Shown piece by piece: positions 1,686 to 13,636 of a stretch of 64,000 nucleotides of DNA. Position 1 is the first letter of the stretch, and the number at the start of each line of letters is the position of its first letter. Both the position numbers and the translations under genes were made by a program. This DNA comes from an uncultured Thermodesulfobacteriota bacterium (GTDB lineage Bacteria > Desulfobacterota > GWC2-55-46 > JADFVP01), in the NCBI GenBank assembly GCA_964407495.1, contig CAYOVP010000003.1, positions 1,484-65,483 on the forward strand. The letters run 5' to 3'. The notes under the pieces are model-generated. The model ran no database searches. It saw nothing but the letters and a program-made list of their open reading frames with translations, and was not told where the DNA came from.

Positions 1686-4280
1686 TCAAAAGAACTTGAG
1701 TTTTCTCCTGTAGTGGAGGCTGTTGCGGTCTGTGGGGTCTACATCAAGGGCCTTTCTGAAGTAGGCTGTTGCGCGGTCGAAGTTGGCGGCAGCGAAGTAG
1801 GCCCTGCCCACAAGGTTGTACTGACCGGCATAGTACTTTTTCATGAGTTTTTCTGCCAGGGCCTTTTTGTCCATATCATCATGTACTACAAGGTAGGGCA
1901 GGACAGGCTCTCGGAGCCGTACGAACTCTGCGATGTTTGGGGAGATGGTATTGATGTGGAGGCTCTTGGGGCCAGTGAACTCCACCACAGGCATGTCGTC
2001 TGTCATGACAGGGCCGTCGCCTGCGTACCTGCGGACACGGTCTTCGTTCATTACAAAGGTTGCAAGGAACTCCGCCGGGTCATCGAGGTCTATGTCCGAG
2101 AGGAGGTCCTTTATGTTGGGCATAGAGAGTTTCTTCACGAGCCGCTCATAATCTACGGTGAGTCTTCTCTCAGAGCCGAGCATGAAGATGTCCGTATTGG
2201 CGAGCCAGATGGAGGTGTGCGGGAAGACGGACTGGAAGGTACGGACCATGAGGCGGACGTCATCCACGGTGAGGTTGTAAAGAGGTATCCACTGCGACAT
2301 TATTCCGCCCTTCTTGAGATGGGCCTTGGCGAGTTCGTAGTATTCCTTTGTGTACAGGTTCACCACACCCGCAAGGGCCGGGTGCATGGGCTCCTCGGTG
2401 ATCACATCGTACTTGTTCTTTGTTACGGCAAGAAAACTCCGTCCGTCGTCTATGTTTATCTTGGATACCGGATTGTTCAGTACATCCATGTTGGCGTCCT
2501 TGAAGTACGAGGCCCCGCCAATGACGGCCTTGGCAATCTCCACATTGTCTACCTGTTTCACCGGAAACTGGCTCAGCGTACCAAAGGTAGTCCCGGAGCC
2601 AAAGCATATTACGAGGACGTCCCTTGGGTTGGGGTGAATGACCATGGGCAGTACGCCCTGAAAGCGGTTTATCTGTAGGCCCTCGTAATATGCGGCAGTG
2701 GCCCTGTTCCCATTCACCCAGAGGCGCTTGTTCGATGCCTCGATTCCAAAACCCTTTCGCTCGGCTATCATCACCGTGGCAGTGGCCCCTTCCTTGTAAT
2801 AGAGTATCTCCTCGCCGCGTCGAAGAAGAGACTTGTGAAGACTCAGTGGCATGTTCTCAGGAAGAGTGAGTACAAGACCTGCCATGGCCGCTACGCCTAT
2901 GACGGGTATGGCGAGTTTAGGCATGCGCCCGCCAATGGGGTTGGCAAGGGCCACGACAAGGCCTATGAGTATGTTGATGCCCGCGGTTAGGATAATGGCG
3001 TTCTGCATTCCCACAAAGGGTATGAAGACAAAGCCGCTTATGAAAGATCCAAGTATGCCGCCTACCGTGTTCAGCGAGTATACGCGGCCTATCTTCTCGC
3101 CTACGCTCTCGGCGCTCCAGTCATAGACCTTGCATATGAGGGGAAAGGTGGCGCCAAAGAGAAAGGTGGGTATTATGAGCGTTATGAAGGATGTAAAGAA
3201 GTTGAGATATACGAACTCTCCCCAGTTGGGCGTACTGTCAAGACGGGCGTAAAAGCCCATTCCCGGCAACTTGGCGTAGAGGATGATGAGGGCAAGGGAA
3301 CTGAGCCCAATGAGGATCTCTACGGCAGAGAAGAGATATATTACCGCGGCGCGTGAACGTATCCTGTCCAGAAAGGAGGAGAGTACGAAACTCCCGAGCG
3401 CTATGCCCGTCAGAAAGACTGCCAGCACCACGGCAAAGGCATATACCGTACCCGTGAGGATGAACCCCAGGACCCTTGTCCAGACCACCTCGTAACACAG
3501 GCCCGTAAAGCCCGATAGACCAAAGGCGTAGAGTATGATGGTGTTGAAGTATGGCGGTATGGCCTTCTCAGGAGGGCGATGGTTGTCTCTGGCAGGCCCT
3601 GACCTGGGCCTGGCTTGGTCTTCGGCCCCGGTCATGTCTACCTCGCGGGCAGTCTCGGTCCTTCCAAAGAGTATGGCCGAAGCGCCTATGGCGAAGTTCA
3701 GCACCCCCGAGCCGTAGAGTATGGCCGAGAGCCCGAAAGAAGGGATGAATACAAAGGCCGCCAGTACGGCGCCGGTAACGGCCCCAAGAGTGTTGATGGC
3801 GTAGAGCCCGCCTATGTCCCAGGCAAAGGTGCGCCTTCCGCGCGCAAGGGTCTTGCTGAGTATGGGGAGAGTGGCGCCCATGAGCGTGGTGGGCACGATG
3901 AGGAGCAGGGCAGAGAGTATGAACTTTATGAGCGTGAGCCCGGCAAAACCAGAGCCCGTGGCCTGGGCAAGGAATACATAGGCGCTGTTGTTGACCTGCA
4001 GGAGGATGCCGAAGAGTATGGCATATACCCCTATGAGTATCTCGGCACCGCCGTACCAGAAAAAACCGCCCCTGTGGCGCTCGATCCACTTTCCGCCGAG
4101 AAAACTCCCGAGGGCAAGGCCGCCGAAGAAGGACGTGAGGACCGTACTCACGGCAAGGAATGTGACGCCAAAGGTGAGGGTTAGGAGTTTTGTCCAGACC
4201 ATCTGGTAGATGAGCGCCGCGACCCCAGAGGCGAAGAACATCAGGTAGATGAGTGCTCTCAATATAAAAAACCCCTTCAT
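1686..4280 (-). CDS. Fused multi-TM/spermidine-synthase-like (aminopropyltransferase fold) protein with C-terminal TPR
   Basis: About 13 TM segments (SGVAALIYQMVWTKLL, FGATFP repeats), then ICFGSGTT SAM-binding motif, DDGRSFL and EEPMHP; TPR-like tail. Confidence 0.85.
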   Translation of the reverse strand: MKGFFILRALIYLMFFASGVAALIYQMVWTKLLTLTFGVTFLAVSTVLTSFFGGLALGSFLGGKWIERHRGGFFWYGGAEILIGVYAILFGILLQVNNSAYVFLAQATGSGFAGLTLIKFILSALLLIVPTTLMGATLPILSKTLARGRRTFAWDIGGLYAINTLGAVTGAVLAAFVFIPSFGLSAILYGSGVLNFAIGASAILFGRTETAREVDMTGAEDQARPRSGPARDNHRPPEKAIPPYFNTIILYAFGLSGFTGLCYEVVWTRVLGFILTGTVYAFAVVLAVFLTGIALGSFVLSSFLDRIRSRAAVIYLFSAVEILIGLSSLALIILYAKLPGMGFYARLDSTPNWGEFVYLNFFTSFITLIIPTFLFGATFPLICKVYDWSAESVGEKIGRVYSLNTVGGILGSFISGFVFIPFVGMQNAIILTAGINILIGLVVALANPIGGRMPKLAIPVIGVAAMAGLVLTLPENMPLSLHKSLLRRGEEILYYKEGATATVMIAERKGFGIEASNKRLWVNGNRATAAYYEGLQINRFQGVLPMVIHPNPRDVLVICFGSGTTFGTLSQFPVKQVDNVEIAKAVIGGASYFKDANMDVLNNPVSKINIDDGRSFLAVTKNKYDVITEEPMHPALAGVVNLYTKEYYELAKAHLKKGGIMSQWIPLYNLTVDDVRLMVRTFQSVFPHTSIWLANTDIFMLGSERRLTVDYERLVKKLSMPNIKDLLSDIDLDDPAEFLATFVMNEDRVRRYAGDGPVMTDDMPVVEFTGPKSLHINTISPNIAEFVRLREPVLPYLVVHDDMDKKALAEKLMKKYYAGQYNLVGRAYFAAANFDRATAYFRKALDVDPTDRNSLHYRRKLKFF

Positions 4281-4716: not shown

Positions 4717-5838
4717 TCAACGGCCCCTCTTGAAGAGGTCCATCTCGCCCAGGGAGAGGAGGTCAGGGTCTTTTTCCTCCAGGGGTACCGTCTCTTCCTC
4801 GGCTGGTCGGCCTGTCTTGGCAAGGGTTTTCTTCCCTTCAGAAGGTTGGTCGGGCGCGGTCTCCTTGCGGCCTATGAGACCAGTATATATGGGCCGCTCG
4901 AAGATCCTCTGATAGGGGGTCCATGAGGCGCCCTCTTCCACCTCTCCTGTCATGACCCGCAGGGCCGCCATCTTTGCGTCCATATCGTCGAGGAAGGAGA
5001 GCATGATGGCCTCTGCGAACTTGGGCCTCTTGGGAGAGCCAAACTCCAGTATGCCATGATGGCTCAGGATGAGGTGGTTGATCGCCATGCGGGTGTGTTC
5101 CGGAAACCCGGGGATGGCCGCAGTCTTCCTGTTTACGAGTTCCACTCCAAGGGTAATGTGGCCGATGAGTTTGCCCTGGTCCGTATAATCAAAGGAACTG
5201 GTGTAAGAGAGTTCGTATATCTTTCCTATGTCGTGGAGGATGGCCCCTGCCATGAGGATATCGCGGTTGAGGGCAAGGTCTTCTCTGTAGTGCTCCACTA
5301 CGAAGTCCACTATGGAGCAGATGGAGAGGACGTGCTCTATGAGTCCGCCGATAAAGGCATGGTGCATGGCCTTGGCAGCCGGGGCGGTCCTGAAGCGGGA
5401 CCTTACATCGGTGTCGGCGAAGATGGCCTTCAGGAGGGCCTTTATCCATGGGTCTTCAAGGGTCTCGATAATGCCATCGAGTTCACCCATCATCTCCTCG
5501 GGGTCTCGTCTCGATGAGGGGAGAAAGTCTGATGGTGAGCATTCCTCTGGCGGAGTCTTTTCTATGGAAGATACGTTCAACTGGACATCTCCGCGGTACG
5601 AGAGGGCATAACCACGGACGCGCACCACGTCTCCTGCTTCGAAGAGGCGTGCCATGGCCTCGGCATTATCCCAGACCCTGGCGTCCATGGACCCTGTGGA
5701 GTCCATGAATCGGAGGCTCAGATAGGGCTTTCCGGTCTTGCTGACGCCCATATCTTTTCTTGCAACAAGAAAGACGTCGTCGATGCGGTCGCGTTCCTTT
5801 ATGTCTTTTATGAAGGTCTTTTTTGCCGATTTATTCAA
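4717..5838 (-). CDS. yhaM: 3'-5' exoribonuclease YhaM-like (OB fold + HD domain)
   Basis: N-terminal OB fold (KTGKPYLSL...DSTG), HHAFIGGLIEH, LHDIGK, HHG, DDMDAK. Confidence 0.8.
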   Translation of the reverse strand: MNKSAKKTFIKDIKERDRIDDVFLVARKDMGVSKTGKPYLSLRFMDSTGSMDARVWDNAEAMARLFEAGDVVRVRGYALSYRGDVQLNVSSIEKTPPEECSPSDFLPSSRRDPEEMMGELDGIIETLEDPWIKALLKAIFADTDVRSRFRTAPAAKAMHHAFIGGLIEHVLSICSIVDFVVEHYREDLALNRDILMAGAILHDIGKIYELSYTSSFDYTDQGKLIGHITLGVELVNRKTAAIPGFPEHTRMAINHLILSHHGILEFGSPKRPKFAEAIMLSFLDDMDAKMAALRVMTGEVEEGASWTPYQRIFERPIYTGLIGRKETAPDQPSEGKKTLAKTGRPAEEETVPLEEKDPDLLSLGEMDLFKRGR

Positions 5839-5962
5839 GGTATTTCCCTTTTTGTCTTTCTTTGTTGGAAGTGCAAGCCTTGTTTAGAGTGTTTGCCTGG
5901 TTTCGCTTCGCTCTACCCAATTTTTCTGTTGGGCCCTGTCCATCCTACGAGTCTACAGGTCT

Positions 5963-6030
5963 TTCCAGCGGGCGCGGCCCGCTGGAACTGGTTTTCTTTG
6001 CTCCACTTTCTTTTTTCTAAAAGAAAGTGG
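5963..6030 (+). repeat. Family-1 dispersed hairpin repeat, copy A, preceded by a GC hairpin
   Basis: TTCCAGCGGGC-GCG-GCCCGCTGGAA hairpin, then GGTTTTCTTTGCTCCACTTTCTTTT-TTCT-AAAAGAAAGTGG. Confidence 0.85.
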
Positions 6031-6100
6031 AAGAATCTTCTCTTCTCTTGGCGGGCCCTGTCCGCCCATCATACATTTTTTTCTTCTCTATAAGATCCTT

Positions 6101-7078
6101 TTAAGCCTTTATCTTTTCTTTTTTCTCTTCTTCGACCCTTTCGAGGAACCACTTTACGTATCTTCTTATGCCTTCTTCAATACCCACTTGTGGTCTGAAC
6201 CCGAGGAGGCGTTCGGCCTTTGATGTATCGGCGCTGGTGATGGGCACGTCTCCAGGCACAGGCGGGAGGTACTCTATCAGGGCCTTTTTCCCGAGGTTTT
6301 TTTCGATAAGGGTTATGAGTTCCCTTACCTCCACGGTTTTCGATCCGCCGAGGTTTATTATTTCGTATCTCATGGGCTTATATACCGATGCCACGAGGCC
6401 ATTTATTATGTCTCCGATGTAGGTAAAGTCGCGTATGGCCGACCCGTCGCCATAGAGGGGGATGGGCGAGCCCGCGTGGATGAGGCGCGTGAATTTTGCC
6501 ACAGCCATGTCAGGCCTGCCCCGCTCGCCGTAAACGGTAAAGAACCTCAGGCATGTAACCTGTAATCCGAAGAGGTGCGAGTAGGTATAGCACATGAGTT
6601 CAGAAGCCCGTTTTGTGGCGGCATAGGGCGAGATGGGGCCCTCGAGTGGGTCCTCCTCGGAGAAGGGGACCTTGGAGTTAAGGCCGTAGACAGATGAGGA
6701 CGAGGCAAAGACGAGGTTGCCGAGGTTTATCTTGCGCGAGGCCTCAAGGACATTGAGCGTTCCCAGGGAGTTGACCTCTTCGTACAGAACGGGTGCCTCG
6801 ATACTGGGGCGCACCCCTGCCCGGGCGGCTATGTGGCAGACCACGTCGGGCCGTTCTGTCTCGAAGACAGTGGCTAATCTGGCGCCGTCCCGTATGTCGA
6901 GTTCATAGAGGCGGTAGGACGGGTTGTTCATTGCAGAGGCGATGTTGCGTCTCTTTATGGCAGGGTCGTAAAAGTCGTTGAAGTTGTCTATGACAACTAC
7001 ACTCTCGCCCCTTTCAAGCAGGTTATCCGCGAGGGTAGAGCCTATGAAGCCGGCCCCGCCGGTTATGAGAATTTTCAT
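6101..7078 (-). CDS. NAD-dependent epimerase/dehydratase (UDP-glucuronate 4-epimerase-like)
   Basis: GGAGFIGS, ASSSSVYG, YAATK (YxxxK), RFFTVYG..GRPDMA. Confidence 0.9.
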   Translation of the reverse strand: MKILITGGAGFIGSTLADNLLERGESVVVIDNFNDFYDPAIKRRNIASAMNNPSYRLYELDIRDGARLATVFETERPDVVCHIAARAGVRPSIEAPVLYEEVNSLGTLNVLEASRKINLGNLVFASSSSVYGLNSKVPFSEEDPLEGPISPYAATKRASELMCYTYSHLFGLQVTCLRFFTVYGERGRPDMAVAKFTRLIHAGSPIPLYGDGSAIRDFTYIGDIINGLVASVYKPMRYEIINLGGSKTVEVRELITLIEKNLGKKALIEYLPPVPGDVPITSADTSKAERLLGFRPQVGIEEGIRRYVKWFLERVEEEKKEKIKA

Positions 7079-7167
7079 CCCACCAAACTAACACAGCCGG
7101 ACCGCAGTGGTCAAGGAGACAGAGGCTACCGGAGGATTTTCAAGGCCCTTTCTTAACTTGGCAAGAT

Positions 7168-7398
7168 GTGCTGATAGACTTAATCCATGGCAGGGATGGG
7201 AAGATGAAGAAAGAGGACATGGGATACGCCAACCACCTCGGCCTGTACTCCGAGGAAATAGCCCCCGCAACAGGAGACTTCCTTGGCAACTTCTCCCAGG
7301 CCTTCACCCACATAGGTTTCATAAACAGCGCCTTGTACCTCGGCAAGGCCGCTGGAATAGAACAGATGGGGCCCCCTCCGATTGGGACGGAGTTATGA
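7168..7398 (+). pseudogene. C-terminal remnant of a glycoside hydrolase family 15 gene
   Basis: GYANHLGLYSEEIAPATGDFLGNFSQAFTHIGFINSA matches the GH15 C-terminal signature (ANxLGLxxEE...GNFPQAFTH); no room for the rest of the gene. Confidence 0.75.
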
Positions 7399-7458
7399 GG
7401 CCAGGAGAAGAAGGTGAGGGTAGCCGGGCATGGCCCGCCGAAAGACAAAAAGATTTTT

Positions 7459-7500
7459 CCACTTTCTTTTGGAAAAAAGAAAGTGGAGCAAAGAAAACCC
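7459..7500 (-). repeat. Family-1 dispersed hairpin repeat, copy B
   Basis: Reverse complement GGGTTTTCTTTGCTCCACTTTCTTTT-TTCC-AAAAGAAAGTGG. Confidence 0.85.
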
Positions 7501-7508
7501 AGCGTGTC

Positions 7509-7536
7509 GGTTGGGTAGAGCGTAGCGAAACCCAAC
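7509..7536 (+). repeat. REP-like palindrome
   Basis: GGTTGGGTAGAGCGTAGCGAAACCCAAC; near-identical reverse copies at 48436-48466 and 48525-48552. Confidence 0.85.
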
Positions 7537-7577
7537 AGAGTGAGAGGGCAGAATTGCCCCCAAGGCCTCGGCAAAAC

Positions 7578-7751
7578 CTAAAAATCCTCGTCGAGGTAGA
7601 ATCTATCAGCCTTTTTCCTGAGTTTCAGCGGGCACTGGCAGTAGGGGCAGTATATCTGGTCTCCGGTCTTGTCCTCTTCGGAAATGGGCACTTCGGCATC
7701 GCAGAGCGGGCACTGCAGGTACCCCGAGAAGGTCTCTCTGTTATAGGACAT
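7578..7751 (-). CDS. Small LysW-like zinc-ribbon protein (57 aa)
   Basis: Not in the ORF track. GAGGAG RBS; MSYNRETFSGYLQCPLCDAEVPISEEDKTGDQIYCPYCQCPLKLRKKADRFYLDEDF; two CPxC knuckles and an acidic C-terminus; 40 nt downstream of gpmI. Confidence 0.8.
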   Translation of the reverse strand: MSYNRETFSGYLQCPLCDAEVPISEEDKTGDQIYCPYCQCPLKLRKKADRFYLDEDF

Positions 7752-7791
7752 CTCTTCTCTCCTCTTCTCTCGGCAAGGGTTTCCCGAACCA

Positions 7792-9315
7792 CTAAAAGAG
7801 CGCTTCCCCTGTCATCTCCGCAGGTTTTTCTATGCCCATTATCTTGAGCACTGTGGGCGCAACGTCCTTGAGCCCCCCGCCTCTTCGGAGGCTTACGCCC
7901 TTGAGGTCATCATCGACGAGTATGAATGGCACGTTGCTTGCCATGTGCGCCGTAAAGGGCGCGCCCGTTCTTTCGTCTATCATGCGTTCCACGTTGCCGT
8001 GGTCAGAGGTGATGATGACGCTCCAGCCGTTCCTGAGGGCCGTCTCCGTAACAAGGCCCACTGCACGGTCTACGGCCTCGCAGGCCTTTACAGCCGCACC
8101 GAGGTCGCCTGTATGCCCCACCATGTCGCCGTTGGCAATGTTGAGGAGTATGAATGAATACTTCTCCTCGCCGAGGCGCGTCGCCGTTGCTGTAGCGATC
8201 TCCATTGCCCTCATCTCTGGCACGAGGTCATAGGTTGCAACGTCTTTTATGGATGGGATTACGAGGCGGTCTTCTCCGTCAAAGGGCTTTTCTATGCCTC
8301 CGTTGAAGAAAAAAGTTACATGGGCGTATTTCTCTGTCTCGCTCACGCGGAACTGCCTGAGCCCCTCGCGGGAGAGGACCTCACCGAGGATGTTCTTGAG
8401 TTCCTCGGGCCTGAAGAGAACAGGCACCTTGAGGCGTATGTCATAGAGCGTCATAGTGGCTATGGCTGCGAGGGCCGGTCTTTTCACACGCCTGAAGCCA
8501 TTGAAGTCCTCTACAGTAAAGGCCGTAACGATCTCGCGCGCCCTGTCGGCCCGGAAGTTGAAGAAGAGGAGGCCGTCACCATTGGAGACAGGGCTATACC
8601 CGCCATCTATGATCGTTGGGAGCATGAACTCGTCGGTAAGACCTTCATCGTAGGAGGCCCGTACTGCCTCGACGGGGCCTTTGGCATGCTCACCCTTTCC
8701 GAGCACCATGGCGTCATAGGCCTTCTGGACCCGCTCCCAGCGCTTGTCCCTGTCCATGGCATAGTACCGCCCGGAGATGGTGGCAATACTCCCAACGCCC
8801 TTTTCCCTCATGCGTCCTGCAAGGGCCTCTATGAAACCAATGCCGCTGTCCGGGGGCGTATCACGTCCATCGAGTACTGCGTGTACGCGTATATCCTTCA
8901 TGCCAGAAGAGGCGGCTATATCCATGAGCGCGTAGAGGTGCTCTATGTGGCTGTGTACGCCGCCGTCAGAGACGAGCCCTGTCATGTGGAGGACGCCGCC
9001 AGCGGCCTTTGTCTTGTGTATGAGTTCCCGGAGTACGGGGTTCTCCGCCAGCGTACCCTCTTCAACGGCTTTGGAGATGCGCGTCAGTTCCTGGTATACG
9101 ACACGGCCAGAGCCCATGGTGAGGTGGCCCACCTCTGAGTTGCCCATCTGACCCTCAGGCAGGCCCACGGCAAGGCCCGAGGTCTTGAGTTCTGTACAGG
9201 GGTAGTCCCTGGACAATGAATCGAGCCTCGGTGTGGATGCTATATATATGGCATTGCCCTCTTTCTCAGGGTTCAGGCCCCAGCCGTCGAGCACCATGAG
9301 ACAGACGCGTTTCAA
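7792..9315 (-). CDS. gpmI: 2,3-bisphosphoglycerate-independent phosphoglycerate mutase
   Basis: LDGWG, GQMGNSEVGH, DGGVHSH, GRYYAMDRD, NFRADRA, ETEKYAHVT, DMVGHTG, SDHGN. Confidence 0.97.
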   Translation of the reverse strand: MKRVCLMVLDGWGLNPEKEGNAIYIASTPRLDSLSRDYPCTELKTSGLAVGLPEGQMGNSEVGHLTMGSGRVVYQELTRISKAVEEGTLAENPVLRELIHKTKAAGGVLHMTGLVSDGGVHSHIEHLYALMDIAASSGMKDIRVHAVLDGRDTPPDSGIGFIEALAGRMREKGVGSIATISGRYYAMDRDKRWERVQKAYDAMVLGKGEHAKGPVEAVRASYDEGLTDEFMLPTIIDGGYSPVSNGDGLLFFNFRADRAREIVTAFTVEDFNGFRRVKRPALAAIATMTLYDIRLKVPVLFRPEELKNILGEVLSREGLRQFRVSETEKYAHVTFFFNGGIEKPFDGEDRLVIPSIKDVATYDLVPEMRAMEIATATATRLGEEKYSFILLNIANGDMVGHTGDLGAAVKACEAVDRAVGLVTETALRNGWSVIITSDHGNVERMIDERTGAPFTAHMASNVPFILVDDDLKGVSLRRGGGLKDVAPTVLKIMGIEKPAEMTGEALF

Positions 9316-9388
9316 TCCTTACCTCGCTTTGTGAGATTGTTGTTATCCATGATTGGCAGGGTTCCTGACCAGGCCCTATCGCGAGGTC

Positions 9389-10705
9389 CTACCTTGCGTC
9401 CGGGTTCATCTGCAGAGTATCCCACTCGCCACAGAAGGCGCACCTTCCGGTCCATTGGCGAAAGGTGGTGGAGCAGTCTGAGCAGGTGAAGGCCGGTCTG
9501 GTCTCCGAGTCGGCACCAAGAAGACTGCCGAAGATCTCTGCGGCCCGGGCGTCATAGCCCTGTTTCTTGTAGGCCGTGCCAAGGAGGACTTTCGAGTAAT
9601 AGGTCTCGCGGCCCTCGTCTCGGATCCTTTCCAGTTCCTCCACGGCCCTGTCCACCATCTCTATCCTCAGGTAAAATCTGGCCAGAAGCAGCCTCAGGTT
9701 CAGGTCGTCGGGCCGGGCCTCCAGTTCCCTCTTGTATAGTTCTATCATCTTCTGTGGTGCCGAGGCCTCTACCTGGTAGTCCTCTATCCTGAACAGGAGC
9801 GCCGCGCTCCCCGGGGCAAGGGAGTAGGCCTTCTCCCAGACCATGAGGGCCTCGTATGCACCGTATTTTTTCTTGTAGATCTCACCGAAGAGGATGTTGG
9901 ATGGTACGAAGTCGTCGTCCTTCCTGAGGGCATCCTTTAAGACCTCCTCGGCCTTGTCGAGGTCGCCTTCGGCAACGAGTGAACGGGCCTGCTCGTAGAG
10001 GAGCCCCGGGAGTTTTCCATGGTCGTGACCGCTGCCACGGAACCAGCCCTTTTTCCTGCTCTCCAGGAGTTTCTCTTCGAGCGAGGCGGCCTCGGCCCAT
10101 TTTTCCTGGTCTATCTTTATGTCGCGAAGTTGCCTTATGGCATACTGGTTCTCTTTCTCGGCCTTGAGTATCTCCTCGAAGGCCCTCTCCGCTCGCTCCG
10201 TATCGCCAGCCTTTCTGGCATAGGTGCCAAGGGCGGTAAGCAGGGCCACTGAAGAGGGGTTGTGGAAGAGTTCGGACTCGATTACCTCCATGGCCTCGTG
10301 AGGGGCGCCTTCGCGCATATGAGTCTCGGCGAGGGAGAGTACTATGGGCAGGTCGCCGGGGACGCCGAGAAGCGCCTTCTCAAGGAGTTCACGGGCTCCG
10401 CCGTAATCGGCGCGGGCCATGGCCTCGAGGGCCCGAAGGTATGTCTTGCGGGCCTCTTCGACCTTTTTGGCGGCCTTCTTGGCCTTCTTGGCGCGAAGTG
10501 TGCGCATTGTGTCGGAAATTACGGCATCGAGGCCCATCATGACCACGCCTGCAACGAAACTCAGAACCATGAGCAGGACAAGGGGTAGGGTATAACTATG
10601 CCCCTTGGCAAGGACAAGCGTTGCTGTGCCGGGGTTTTCTACATAGAGGTAGAAAAAACTCGACAGCGCGATGAGGGCGAGAAAAAAGAGGAGTTTTATG
10701 TTCAT
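9389..10705 (-). CDS. LapA/LapB-like TPR membrane protein with C-terminal rubredoxin-type metal site
   Basis: Two N-terminal TM segments (LapA-like ..VENP), TPR repeats, C-terminal CSDC...CAFC; start taken at MNIKLLFF. Confidence 0.75.
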   Translation of the reverse strand: MNIKLLFFLALIALSSFFYLYVENPGTATLVLAKGHSYTLPLVLLMVLSFVAGVVMMGLDAVISDTMRTLRAKKAKKAAKKVEEARKTYLRALEAMARADYGGARELLEKALLGVPGDLPIVLSLAETHMREGAPHEAMEVIESELFHNPSSVALLTALGTYARKAGDTERAERAFEEILKAEKENQYAIRQLRDIKIDQEKWAEAASLEEKLLESRKKGWFRGSGHDHGKLPGLLYEQARSLVAEGDLDKAEEVLKDALRKDDDFVPSNILFGEIYKKKYGAYEALMVWEKAYSLAPGSAALLFRIEDYQVEASAPQKMIELYKRELEARPDDLNLRLLLARFYLRIEMVDRAVEELERIRDEGRETYYSKVLLGTAYKKQGYDARAAEIFGSLLGADSETRPAFTCSDCSTTFRQWTGRCAFCGEWDTLQMNPDAR

Positions 10706-10769
10706 GGGCCTTTTATCGTGGTTGTGAGCGTGGAGCAGGTCTTTTTCCAGCCATGAGGCCAGGTGCCGC

Positions 10770-11249
10770 TCAGTGCGAGTATGGCTCGCCTCTTGATATG
10801 GTAAAGGCCCTGTAGACCTGCTCTGCAAGTACGAGGGCCGCCATCTCGTGTGGCAGGGTCATTGGCGATAGCGATAGACGCATATCAGCATCTTTGACAA
10901 TACTCTTGTCAAGGCCGTAGGCCCCGCCGATGATGAAGACGAGGTCTCTGCCAAGGGCCAGCCTCTCTTCCATAAACCCGGCAAAGCCCCCTGATGTAAA
11001 GGCCTGGGCGCCTCTGGCCTCGGTGAGGGCGATCCTGAAGGCGCCCTTTGCGTCAAGGCGTTTATTTATCCGCCGGGCTTCTTCACGCAGACCTTTGCAC
11101 CTCCCGTCTGCCTTTCTGCCCATGGGACTGTCTTTTATCTCGATGACCTCTACGCCGCAGTATCTCTTCAGCCTCTTGATGTACTCGTAAAAGCCCTCTT
11201 TGAGGAGGCTTTTTTTTAGGGAGCCTGTGAGAATAAATGTTATCTTCAT
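10770..11249 (-). CDS. rlmH: 23S rRNA (pseudouridine1915-N3)-methyltransferase
   Basis: FIIGGAYGL, LSLSPMTLPHE, EQVYRA, GEPYSH; follows rsfS. Confidence 0.95.
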   Translation of the reverse strand: MKITFILTGSLKKSLLKEGFYEYIKRLKRYCGVEVIEIKDSPMGRKADGRCKGLREEARRINKRLDAKGAFRIALTEARGAQAFTSGGFAGFMEERLALGRDLVFIIGGAYGLDKSIVKDADMRLSLSPMTLPHEMAALVLAEQVYRAFTISRGEPYSH

Positions 11250-11254
11250 CTCTT

Positions 11255-11323
11255 CCAGCGGCCATCAGGCCGCTGGCATTGGTTTTCTTTGTCTTACTTT
11301 CTTTTTTCCAAAAGAAAGTAAGG
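11255..11323 (+). repeat. Family-1 dispersed hairpin repeat, copy C, between rsfS and rlmH
   Basis: CCAGCGGCC-ATCA-GGCCGCTGG hairpin, then GGTTTTCTTTGTCTTACTTTCTTTT-TTCC-AAAAGAAAGTAAG. Confidence 0.88.
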
Positions 11324-11381
11324 AATCTTTTAATATGCGGCCAAAGGCCGCCAACCTTCTTCTTTTCTTTTCTTTTCTCTT

Positions 11382-11759
11382 CTATCCGCCCGTTTTTTCG
11401 AGTTTTTTCGTCTTGCCTGCCTTCAGTTCCACGACCTCGGCATCCGCCCAGAGGCCTTCGAGGTCGTAGTATGTGCGGAGCGGTTCGATGAAGATATGCA
11501 CCACGATGTCTCCATAGTCGAGTAGCGCCCACCTGCCGGTCTCTATTCCTTCTGTGCCAAGCGGCCGCACCCCCTTCTCGCGGAGGCCGTCCAGTATGTT
11601 CATGGCAATGGCATGGACCTGCCGCTCCGAGCCTGCCCCGCAGATGAGGACATAGTCGGATACAGAGGAGATCTTTTTTATCATTAATATTACGGGATTG
11701 TCTGCCTGTTTCTGAAGGGCCAGGCGGGCCGCTCTGAGGACCTTTGCTTTTGGGTACAG
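11382..11759 (-). CDS. rsfS: Ribosome silencing factor
   Basis: DYVLICGAGSERQVHAIA, WALLDYGDIVVHIF, YYDLEGLW; frame is open upstream of the track start, true start uncertain (CTG at 11759 used). Confidence 0.92.
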   Translation of the reverse strand: MYPKAKVLRAARLALQKQADNPVILMIKKISSVSDYVLICGAGSERQVHAIAMNILDGLREKGVRPLGTEGIETGRWALLDYGDIVVHIFIEPLRTYYDLEGLWADAEVVELKAGKTKKLEKTGG

Positions 11760-11808
11760 TTTCCTCTCTCCTTTTTTCTGGTTGCAGGGTGGAAAGCGGT
11801 GGCCGTGT

Positions 11809-12465
11809 TCAGGCGTATAATCTCTTTGTCATTATATACTCTGCCACTTCACGGGGCAAGAGATACCTTATGGAGAGGCCCTCTCTGACGCGTTCGCGTA
11901 TCTCTGAAGACGATATGGCCATGAGCGTTGTGGTGAGATATGTGATGGATGTGCCGAAGTCGCTCTGGTAGGCCTCTGAGTCGCTGTCATACCAGTATTT
12001 TCTCGCGAGGCGCTCTGGCAGGACCTCGGCTATTTTTTTGACAGGCGTCTGCGGGCGTTCCACCACTATGAGCGAGGCGAGGGTGAGTATTTCCTCGTAC
12101 TCGCACCAGGTGGTGATGTCGTTGAAGGAGTCCCCGCCTATGATAAGGCTTGTGGCGAGGTCGGTCTCCCCCTTGTAGCCGTTTTTTTTAAGTTCCCTCA
12201 GGGTCTCGACCGTGTACGATGGGCCCCCGCGCCTTATCTCCATCTCCGAGACCTCGAAGCCGGGGTTGTCCTCTGTGGCTATGCGTGTCATCTCGAGGCG
12301 GTGTTGTGCTGTCGAGGCCTCGGCGCCTCCCTTGTGGGGCGGGATGGCGGCAGGGACAAAGACCACGAGGTCGAAGCCAAGGCCCTCGCGGACTTCTTCG
12401 GCAAGGCGAAGGTGGCCGTAGTGGATGGGGTTGAATGTGCCTCCGAAGAGGGCGATTTTTTTCAA
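11809..12465 (-). CDS. nadD: Nicotinate-nucleotide adenylyltransferase
   Basis: GGTFNPIHYGH, PPHK, GPSYT, IIGGDS, ISSSEIR. Confidence 0.96.
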   Translation of the reverse strand: MKKIALFGGTFNPIHYGHLRLAEEVREGLGFDLVVFVPAAIPPHKGGAEASTAQHRLEMTRIATEDNPGFEVSEMEIRRGGPSYTVETLRELKKNGYKGETDLATSLIIGGDSFNDITTWCEYEEILTLASLIVVERPQTPVKKIAEVLPERLARKYWYDSDSEAYQSDFGTSITYLTTTLMAISSSEIRERVREGLSIRYLLPREVAEYIMTKRLYA

Positions 12466-12841
12466 AAGAGGCCAACTCCTCAGGTAAAATAACTACTTTT
12501 CAATGCTATAGGATAAGAAAAAGACTGTCAACGCTTTTTAGGATTCAGCCTTGTTGGAAACATGGCGAAACCCCCTCTTTCGGGGGATTGACAGGTATCG
12601 CGCCTTTGTAATATAAGTATAGGTAACTATCTTAAAAATCGAACCTCCTCCGTACCCGCGGGTTTTTCTCTCCAGGCCTCGATTTTTCTGGACTGGCGGG
12701 TCCCGGAGAGTGGGAGATATCTGATAAGGGGGTCAGAAAAGCGCGGCTCCTTGAAGCCAGAAGCGGCAATTAAGAGAGATTCCAGGGTTCGCGGTTCCCG
12801 CGTTTTCTAGTCTACATGGGTCAAAGGCGAGAGACCTTGAA

Positions 12842-13636
12842 GTGAAGAAACTTCTCAGCATATCATTCTTTATCTGCCTTATTCTTCTCTCTGCCCTCTC
12901 ATGGGCGGCAGATGAGAGCCCAGTGGGCCTGGTGGTCATAGACCCCGGCCACGGAGGCATTGACAGGGGCGCCATAGGGCCTGATGGTTTGAAGGAGAAG
13001 GACTTGACACTCATGGTGGCCAAGAGGCTTGCCACCATACTCAAGAACAAGTACGGATTCATGGTGGCCCTTACGCGCGAGGACGATACCTATGTGCCCC
13101 TTGAGAAGAGGACGGCCATGGCCAACTCCCTTGGAGCCAGCCTCTTTATAAGTATCCACGTAAACGCCGCTCTGAGCCCGCGGCCCAAGGGGGTTGAGAC
13201 CTTTTTCCTGAGTTATGACGCCACAGATGAAGAGGCCGTGCGGCTGGCCGCCGTGGAGAACGGATTTGACCCCTCCAAGACGGGTATAAAATACGAGTTC
13301 AACAATGACCTCAAGACAACGCTCCTCGATCTCCTCGAGACAGCGGCCCATCACGAGAGTTCCACCCTTGCAGAGGCCGTTCATACGAGTATAATAAGAA
13401 TTACGAGAAGGGATGACCGCGGAGTGAGGCAGGCGCCCTTTGCCGTACTCGACGGAGCCACAATGCCGGCAGTTCTCGTGGAACTGGGCTTTATCTCCAA
13501 CCGGTCTGACGAACAATGGCTCAGGTCCAAGGAGGGCGCGGCCCTTGCCGCAAGGTCCATCGCCCTTGGCATAGCGGACTTCGAGAACAGGACCGGCATG
13601 GAGGTAAAGAGGGCTGGATTTGAAAAACACGATTAA
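12842..13636 (+). CDS. N-acetylmuramoyl-L-alanine amidase (Amidase_3), signal peptide plus catalytic domain only
   Basis: [33 protein letters not shown]. Confidence 0.92.

Follow-up and report, generated by a model that had tools for sequence, protein, structure and literature searches.

A LysW-fold zinc-ribbon mini-protein with an EDF C-terminus, encoded next to gpmI in an uncultured Thermodesulfobacteriota bacterium, belongs to a sister family of LysW

P0001, a 57-amino-acid (aa) zinc-ribbon protein of an uncultured Thermodesulfobacteriota bacterium, belongs to a sister family (paralogue) of the carrier protein LysW and is not an ordinary carrier. The family is well conserved in LysX-free bacteria, in which the fold is kept and the carrier arm is apparently lacking. 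P0001 itself is a class-wide core mini-protein of Thermodesulfobacteriota-type bacteria without an assigned role. Here, we describe the gene, its relation to LysW, its neighborhoods across the phylum, and the functions that it may have. Positions refer to the window, the whole 64,000-nucleotide stretch of DNA that was analyzed (contig CAYOVP010000003.1, positions 1,484 to 65,483, forward strand, of assembly GCA_964407495.1).

The classic example of a protein bearing a biosynthetic intermediate is LysW, whose flexible C-terminal extension, lying beyond the globular domain, reaches the active sites of enzymes. Amino-group carrier proteins are small, with three or four zinc-binding cysteines in two knuckles, and LysW is defined by its zinc-binding cysteines together with an EDWGE motif, the terminal Glu of which is loaded by LysX or ArgX and carries the substrate (PMC10433800). 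A literature search found no paper on an EDF-tipped LysW-like family; the names "LysW" and "LysX" in delta-proteobacterial papers were collisions, denoting a lysine transporter and an HTH regulator.

The gene and its immediate surroundings were as follows:

7578..7751, minus strand: P0001, 57-aa LysW-fold zinc-ribbon gene, with CPLC at residues 14-17, CPYC at residues 35-38, and the C-terminus YLDEDF followed by the stop (direct translation)
7759..7763, minus strand: AGGAG, Shine-Dalgarno-like, 7 nt before the P0001 ATG (read off the sequence)
7458..7487, minus strand: terminator-like hairpin with a 13-bp stem and a T-rich tail, ~90 nt past the P0001 stop (a pattern match from a consensus scan)
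7792..9315, minus strand: gpmI, cofactor-independent phosphoglycerate mutase, upstream of P0001 (TIGR01307, 661 bits; PF06415; PF01676)

The gap from gpmI to P0001 is 40 nt and contained no minus-strand terminator-like sites in a simple consensus scan; P0001 is probably co-transcribed with gpmI, a reading that agrees with this anatomy. Beyond gpmI in the upstream direction, that strand also has the gene of a LapA-domain/TPR/LapB-ribbon protein as well as rlmH and nadD, and the genes downstream of P0001 code for an NAD-dependent sugar epimerase, a YhaM-like OB+HD nuclease, and an MFS-spermidine-synthase-TPR fusion. An Rfam scan of window positions 5000 to 13000 gave no matches.

The LapB/YciM-like protein (9389-10828, minus strand) carries a fused N-terminal LapA domain, followed by TPRs and a LapB rubredoxin-type ribbon; because its longest open reading frame (ORF) shares bases with the end of rlmH (10770-11249), the true start is probably further downstream. 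The 864-aa fusion (1686-4280, minus strand) joins an MFS-like membrane domain, a spermidine-synthase domain, and a C-terminal TPR (NF037959) and is kept downstream in relatives. At the place of the 430-nt stretch after P0001 (7140-7577, notably 7168-7398, plus strand), the relatives L014, L015, L018, and L071 have a full-length GH15 glucoamylase/trehalase gene (~609 aa, on the strand opposite to the ribbon gene). The window's lineage has deleted this gene, and only its tail is left beside P0001.

The P0001 ORF is a real gene under purifying selection. Among five 57-codon orthologues, dN/dS was 0.05 to 0.22 (Nei-Gojobori, pairwise, limited to pairs with estimable dS). A word-based search returned four 57-aa homologues with 68 to 88% identity, one of them an NCBI "hypothetical protein" of a Thermodesulfobacteriota MAG; the homologues are predicted by gene callers, and their contigs, when fetched, had the order nadD-rsfS-rlmH-lapB-gpmI-ribbon, as in the window. 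When 401 genomes of the phylum were searched with the ribbon profile, a strong match (E ≤ 4e-17) came from 13/13 other sampled genomes of the window's class, and strong matches came also from several other families (f17, 11/11 genomes; f19, 6/7 genomes), for a total of ~34 genomes with a strong match. The exact P0001 sequence is present in the ESM Atlas, where the matches belong to unnamed clusters and one cluster named "putative LysW." The features kept in 15 class-level orthologues are the four Cys, a YL ahead of the first knuckle, and a [YF][LF]xED[FY] end; across 55 family sequences, C35 and C38 do not vary, and conservation of C14 and C17 is ≥90%. A sequence-only reading of this DNA had described a 57-aa ORF with a good ribosome-binding site (RBS), twin CPxC knuckles, and a YLDEDF end, and the translation, the AGGAG 7 nt from the ATG, the dN/dS values, and the conservation in the class all agree with it.

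The relation to LysW, proposed in the same reading, is supported by profile and structure searches, though the single protein stays under curated thresholds. P0001 alone scored 18.1 bits against PF21344 (cut-off [GA], 27) and 23 bits against NF041070 (cut-off, 75), and TIGR01206 gave no match at E ≤ 0.1. Of 1.84 billion representatives searched exhaustively with the profile, 82 matched at E ≤ 1e-3, mostly proteins of 48 to 80 aa, and among the 55 aligned family members, 44 matched PF21344 and 46 matched NF041070 (E < 0.01). Longer proteins matching the family profile were generic multi-zinc-ribbon or TIR proteins and were set aside as uninformative on function. Against PDB sequences, the best matches of the family profile were LysW of Thermus (E, 2.4e-5), Thermococcus (9.6e-5), and Sulfolobus (1.3e-3).

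An AlphaFold2 model of P0001 was of moderate confidence (mean pLDDT, 75.5; last block, 73), with strands at residues 10-13, 20-23, 32-34, 41-47, and 50-55. The five best PDB matches by Foldseek were all LysW chains (probability, 0.98 to 1.0), with 3vpb_E at a TM of 0.75 and an rmsd of 1.0 Å; VIA-align placed the same chains as its top five (Z, 5.7 to 7.8; rmsd, 1.0 to 1.8 Å over 45 to 48 residues), and the next match was an unrelated fold (Z, 4.2). The LysW chains compared were those of Thermus thermophilus (3wwl, 3wwn, 5eio), Sulfurisphaera tokodaii (3vpb), and Thermococcus kodakarensis (5k2m). Because the PDB profile search, Foldseek, and VIA-align all put LysW first, the relation is real at the level of fold and superfamily. 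LysW and ArgW resemble P0001 in their length (~55 aa), in two CxxC knuckles at the same positions, in an acidic region ahead of the C-terminus, and, as judged from the model, in a globular fold with four Cys in two CPxC knuckles plus a beta-hairpin.

The two part at the C-terminus. LysW ends in EDWGE with its terminal Glu, whereas P0001 lacks both and ends in DEDF; the EDF end noted in the sequence-only reading recurs in 14/15 class orthologues, with EDY in the remaining 1/15. None of 74 small representatives ends in DWGE, while 36 end in [ED][ED][FYW]-COOH and 6 more have the same motif followed by one or two residues; the tip is therefore a family trait and not a local accident. Residues 9-57 of the P0001 model superpose on residues 1-48 of 56 in LysW 3vpb_E or 1-46 of 54 in Thermus LysW (VIA-align), and F57 falls near LysW residue 46-48, ahead of the EDWGE arm, so that P0001 as modeled would stop where the 8-residue arm of LysW begins. 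In the model, residues 50-55 form a strand that pairs with the KLRKK strand. This suggests, in a model-dependent way, that the whole carrier arm may be missing, beyond the loss of the last Glu; in a sequence-profile alignment, the terminal F/Y lines up with the Trp of EDWGE, which competes with the arm-absent reading. The KLRKK strand is basic in P0001, whereas LysW is acidic at that place: the stretch after the second knuckle holds five Lys/Arg and four Asp/Glu in P0001, and its equivalent in the canonical LysW sequences that were read is acidic. As possible resemblances of the tip, we considered the C-terminal tip of SSB (DDDIPF), ligands of PDZ domains or TPR carboxylate clamps, and FYDLN_acid proteins, and we claim no relation to any of them.

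The enzyme that would load such an arm was sought in the window, the genome, and the class. No lysX or argX lies inside the window, as the sequence-only reading had stated, and the best match to LysX (TIGR02144) in the window's genome scored 39.7 bits against a cut-off of 275.6, in a draft (2.13 Mb, 117 contigs, 96% complete) whose lack of LysX is by itself not absolute. Two ORFs that passed the RimK Pfam cut-off were the D-Ala-D-Ala ligase Ddl (in a murB-ddl cluster) and the biotin carboxylase AccC, not LysX. At E ≤ 1e-30, LysX was found in 0/13 class relatives, whose genomes are 98 to 100% complete (one is a single closed contig), and no LysX or ArgX adjoined the ribbon gene in 20 genome loci. 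The window's genome has ArgJ (475 bits) and DapF, which by established pathway knowledge would mean an acetyl-cycle arginine route and a diaminopimelate lysine route. With no LysX or ArgX in the genome or class, arginine made via ArgJ, and lysine made via diaminopimelate, P0001 is very probably not an amino-group (LysX-loaded) carrier. The earlier claim that it cannot work as a canonical carrier thus gains support from the missing EDWGE and from the missing ligase in both genome and class.

True LysX exceeded the cut-off in five genomes of the phylum (G025, G036, G011, G327, and G171), and in all five, a weak match to the ribbon profile (23 to 35 bits) lies directly beside it. The LysX-adjacent ORF was read in G025, G036, G327, and G171 (L078-L082) and is, in each of these four genomes, a canonical LysW with the end EEDWGE. 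Elsewhere in the genome, G025, G011, and G327 have a strong ribbon copy (76 to 81 bits). Canonical LysW and the strong paralogue are separate genes in one genome, and the P0001 family is therefore a separate sister family. Consistent co-occurrence with lysX, which the sequence-only reading had named as a sign of ordinary LysW function, was looked for and is absent, LysX being present in just 3 of the ~34 genomes that hold the variant; the distinct small-protein family proposed there is upheld, since EEDWGE LysW scores just 23 to 35 bits with the family profile and three genomes hold both forms. Because the canonical and variant forms share genomes, they offer a clean comparison set for the gain or loss of carrier function. 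We caution that ribbons of this kind should not be labeled "lysine biosynthesis protein LysW." The lysW-lysX pairs, found in a few genomes of the phylum, indicate that an alpha-aminoadipate or ArgW-type carrier route is patchy there.

For the neighborhoods, 16 kb around each of 20 genomic ribbon copies was taken, the neighboring ORFs were clustered, and the window was added. Unlike LysW and ArgW, P0001 does not adjoin lysine or arginine genes. Group A comprises the window's class and ends in ...EDF/Y; in most genomes of the order, gpmI is its immediate upstream neighbor. The same pair of neighbors was seen in L014, L015, L018, L056, L070, and L084, the last being a metagenomic relative of 42% identity; in L052 and L055, the gene upstream of the ribbon has the opposite orientation, the ribbon of L054 follows a macro-domain gene, and in L067, other genes lie between gpmI and the ribbon. 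The adjacency is order-level synteny that is broken in some lineages. The epimerase and the YhaM-like nuclease come after the ribbon in several loci, directly so in L021, where the upstream gene is on the opposite strand, and RtcB or archease is convergent with and abuts the ribbon in four loci; RtcB occurs in 355/401 genomes, so this neighbor carries no phyletic signal.

Locus L071 (genome G060, of the same family as the window's genome) has DUF3553-like and 85-aa EF-Tu-domain-2-like genes between gpmI and the ribbon. The 85-aa mini-gene is translationally coupled to the ribbon gene, the DUF3553 mini-gene is divergent to it, and an AbiGi-like gene lies just downstream; these three neighbors are at 8152-8409 (minus strand), 8616-8843 (plus strand), and 7137-7880 (plus strand) of the locus. 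Single-protein queries found neither mini-gene in the window's genome, so they are not obligate partners of the ribbon.

Group B (f17; L053, L057, L058, and L060) has the C-terminus ...EDFEE or similar, and a metallophosphoesterase comes immediately after it; group C (f19; L064, L065, and L069) has ...EEEG or EEEE at the end, and carB comes immediately before it. Both resemble P0001 in matching the same profile (70 to 87 bits; E, 1e-19 to 1e-24), in size, and in knuckles, and both occur in LysX-free genomes and never adjoin LysX. More distant tip-bearing members adjoin ApbE and PilZ, glycogen phosphorylase and LemA, or hisS and endonuclease III. Across the 20 genome loci and the metagenome contigs examined, no ligase, PLP enzyme, or other catalytic partner recurred beside the ribbon; gpmI, the epimerase, the YhaM-like nuclease, and RtcB/archease recurred only inside the order or class.

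The best explanation, which we favor with moderate confidence, is a retained LysW-paralogue ribbon that has no carrier arm, is not loaded by LysX, and is a putative docking or regulatory subunit. P0001 would be a small metal-binding zinc ribbon that keeps the globular LysW fold and lacks the flexible EDWGE arm; its chain would finish level with the edge of the globular domain, in an invariant acidic-aromatic tip (E-D-F-COOH). Expressed in this lineage from the tail of the nadD-rsfS-rlmH-lapB-gpmI operon, it would serve a housekeeping partner as a docking or regulatory subunit without catalysis of its own: the carboxylate at the C-terminus, the Phe ring, and the acidic residues ahead of them would plug into a pocket of that partner, either basic or hydrophobic. 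A docking determinant is the simplest reading of the tip because the C-terminus is invariantly acidic-aromatic and the protein has no catalytic features; the docking mechanism itself is put forward tentatively, as a guess that we would sooner doubt than trust, and the neighborhoods (20 genome loci plus the window) brought out no docking partner. In a wider form of the idea, which seems improbable to us, the EDF/EDY ribbons would be widespread armless LysW-fold plug-in regulators, the tip entering a pocket of a core enzyme whose gene is in the same block (such as the YhaM-like OB-fold nuclease, iPGM, or the LapB-like TPR protein), and could represent either what LysW was before it became a carrier or a carrier turned regulator. 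The contigs that bear [ED][ED][FYW]-COOH ribbons have unlike gene contexts.

Like P0001, the Trm112/YcaR-type proteins are small, single-domain zinc-knuckle proteins, and in both, the role, known or proposed, is to bind a partner enzyme. P0001 could be a Trm112-like or ribosome-associated ribbon that activates or escorts an RNA-modifying or -processing enzyme of the same block (RlmH, RsfS, the YhaM-like OB+HD nuclease, or RtcB/archease), although we consider this unlikely. The operon contains rsfS and rlmH, many loci have the YhaM-like nuclease downstream or close by (directly after ribbon and epimerase in L021), and RtcB or archease abuts convergently in the four loci noted above, but RtcB is near-universal, and the synteny fits shared ancestry and is broken in L052, L054, L055, and L086. 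Weak Trm112_arch matches were seen in 9/55 members, and one JGI record says "Trm112 family"; these matches are far under threshold and cover one knuckle (P0001 against the Trm112 model NF038101, 16.8 bits versus 77; E, 0.0055; residues 5-25 only). Ribosomal zinc ribbons appeared at a Z of ~3, no Trm112 chain was among the matches listed by Foldseek or VIA-align, and an acidic tip alone is no pointer to RNA binding.

A non-canonical carrier, in which a ligase unrelated to LysX would load the alpha-carboxylate of the terminal Phe or a Glu/Asp of the tail and the product would be processed on the protein, draws on the homology to the proven carrier LysW and on the invariance of the tip residue. 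We hold it to be quite unlikely: the genome has no RimK/LysX-type ATP-grasp (those checked were Ddl and AccC), no ligase or PLP enzyme recurs in the 20 genome loci or the metagenome contigs examined, and no free arm able to extend into an active site is present in the model.

Small Fe-Cys4 proteins abound in the host phylum, and two CPxC knuckles are also the ligand geometry of rubredoxin, so P0001 might be a rubredoxin-like, iron-binding redox mini-protein of an anaerobe and not a zinc protein. An extra Cys at position 40 in many orthologues would fit such a role, but that position is S, T, or V in many others, the Pfam and NCBIfam matches include no rubredoxin family, the best structural matches are Zn-LysW chains, and the gene has no redox neighbors, all of which leave this reading very improbable. 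A spurious ORF or a relic of a decayed lysW is scarcely credible: P0001 is very short, scores under curated HMM thresholds, and adjoins a degraded GH15 gene, but the low dN/dS contradicts this, as do the intact ORF with Cys and tip conserved in 15 orthologues, the match in 13/13 class genomes, and the proper RBS.

Many RtcB genes of the phylum contain a single in-frame TGA (e.g., G186:C143:5902-7209 and G011:C125:38162-39469), which suggests that several families of the phylum may have a selenocysteine-containing RtcB.
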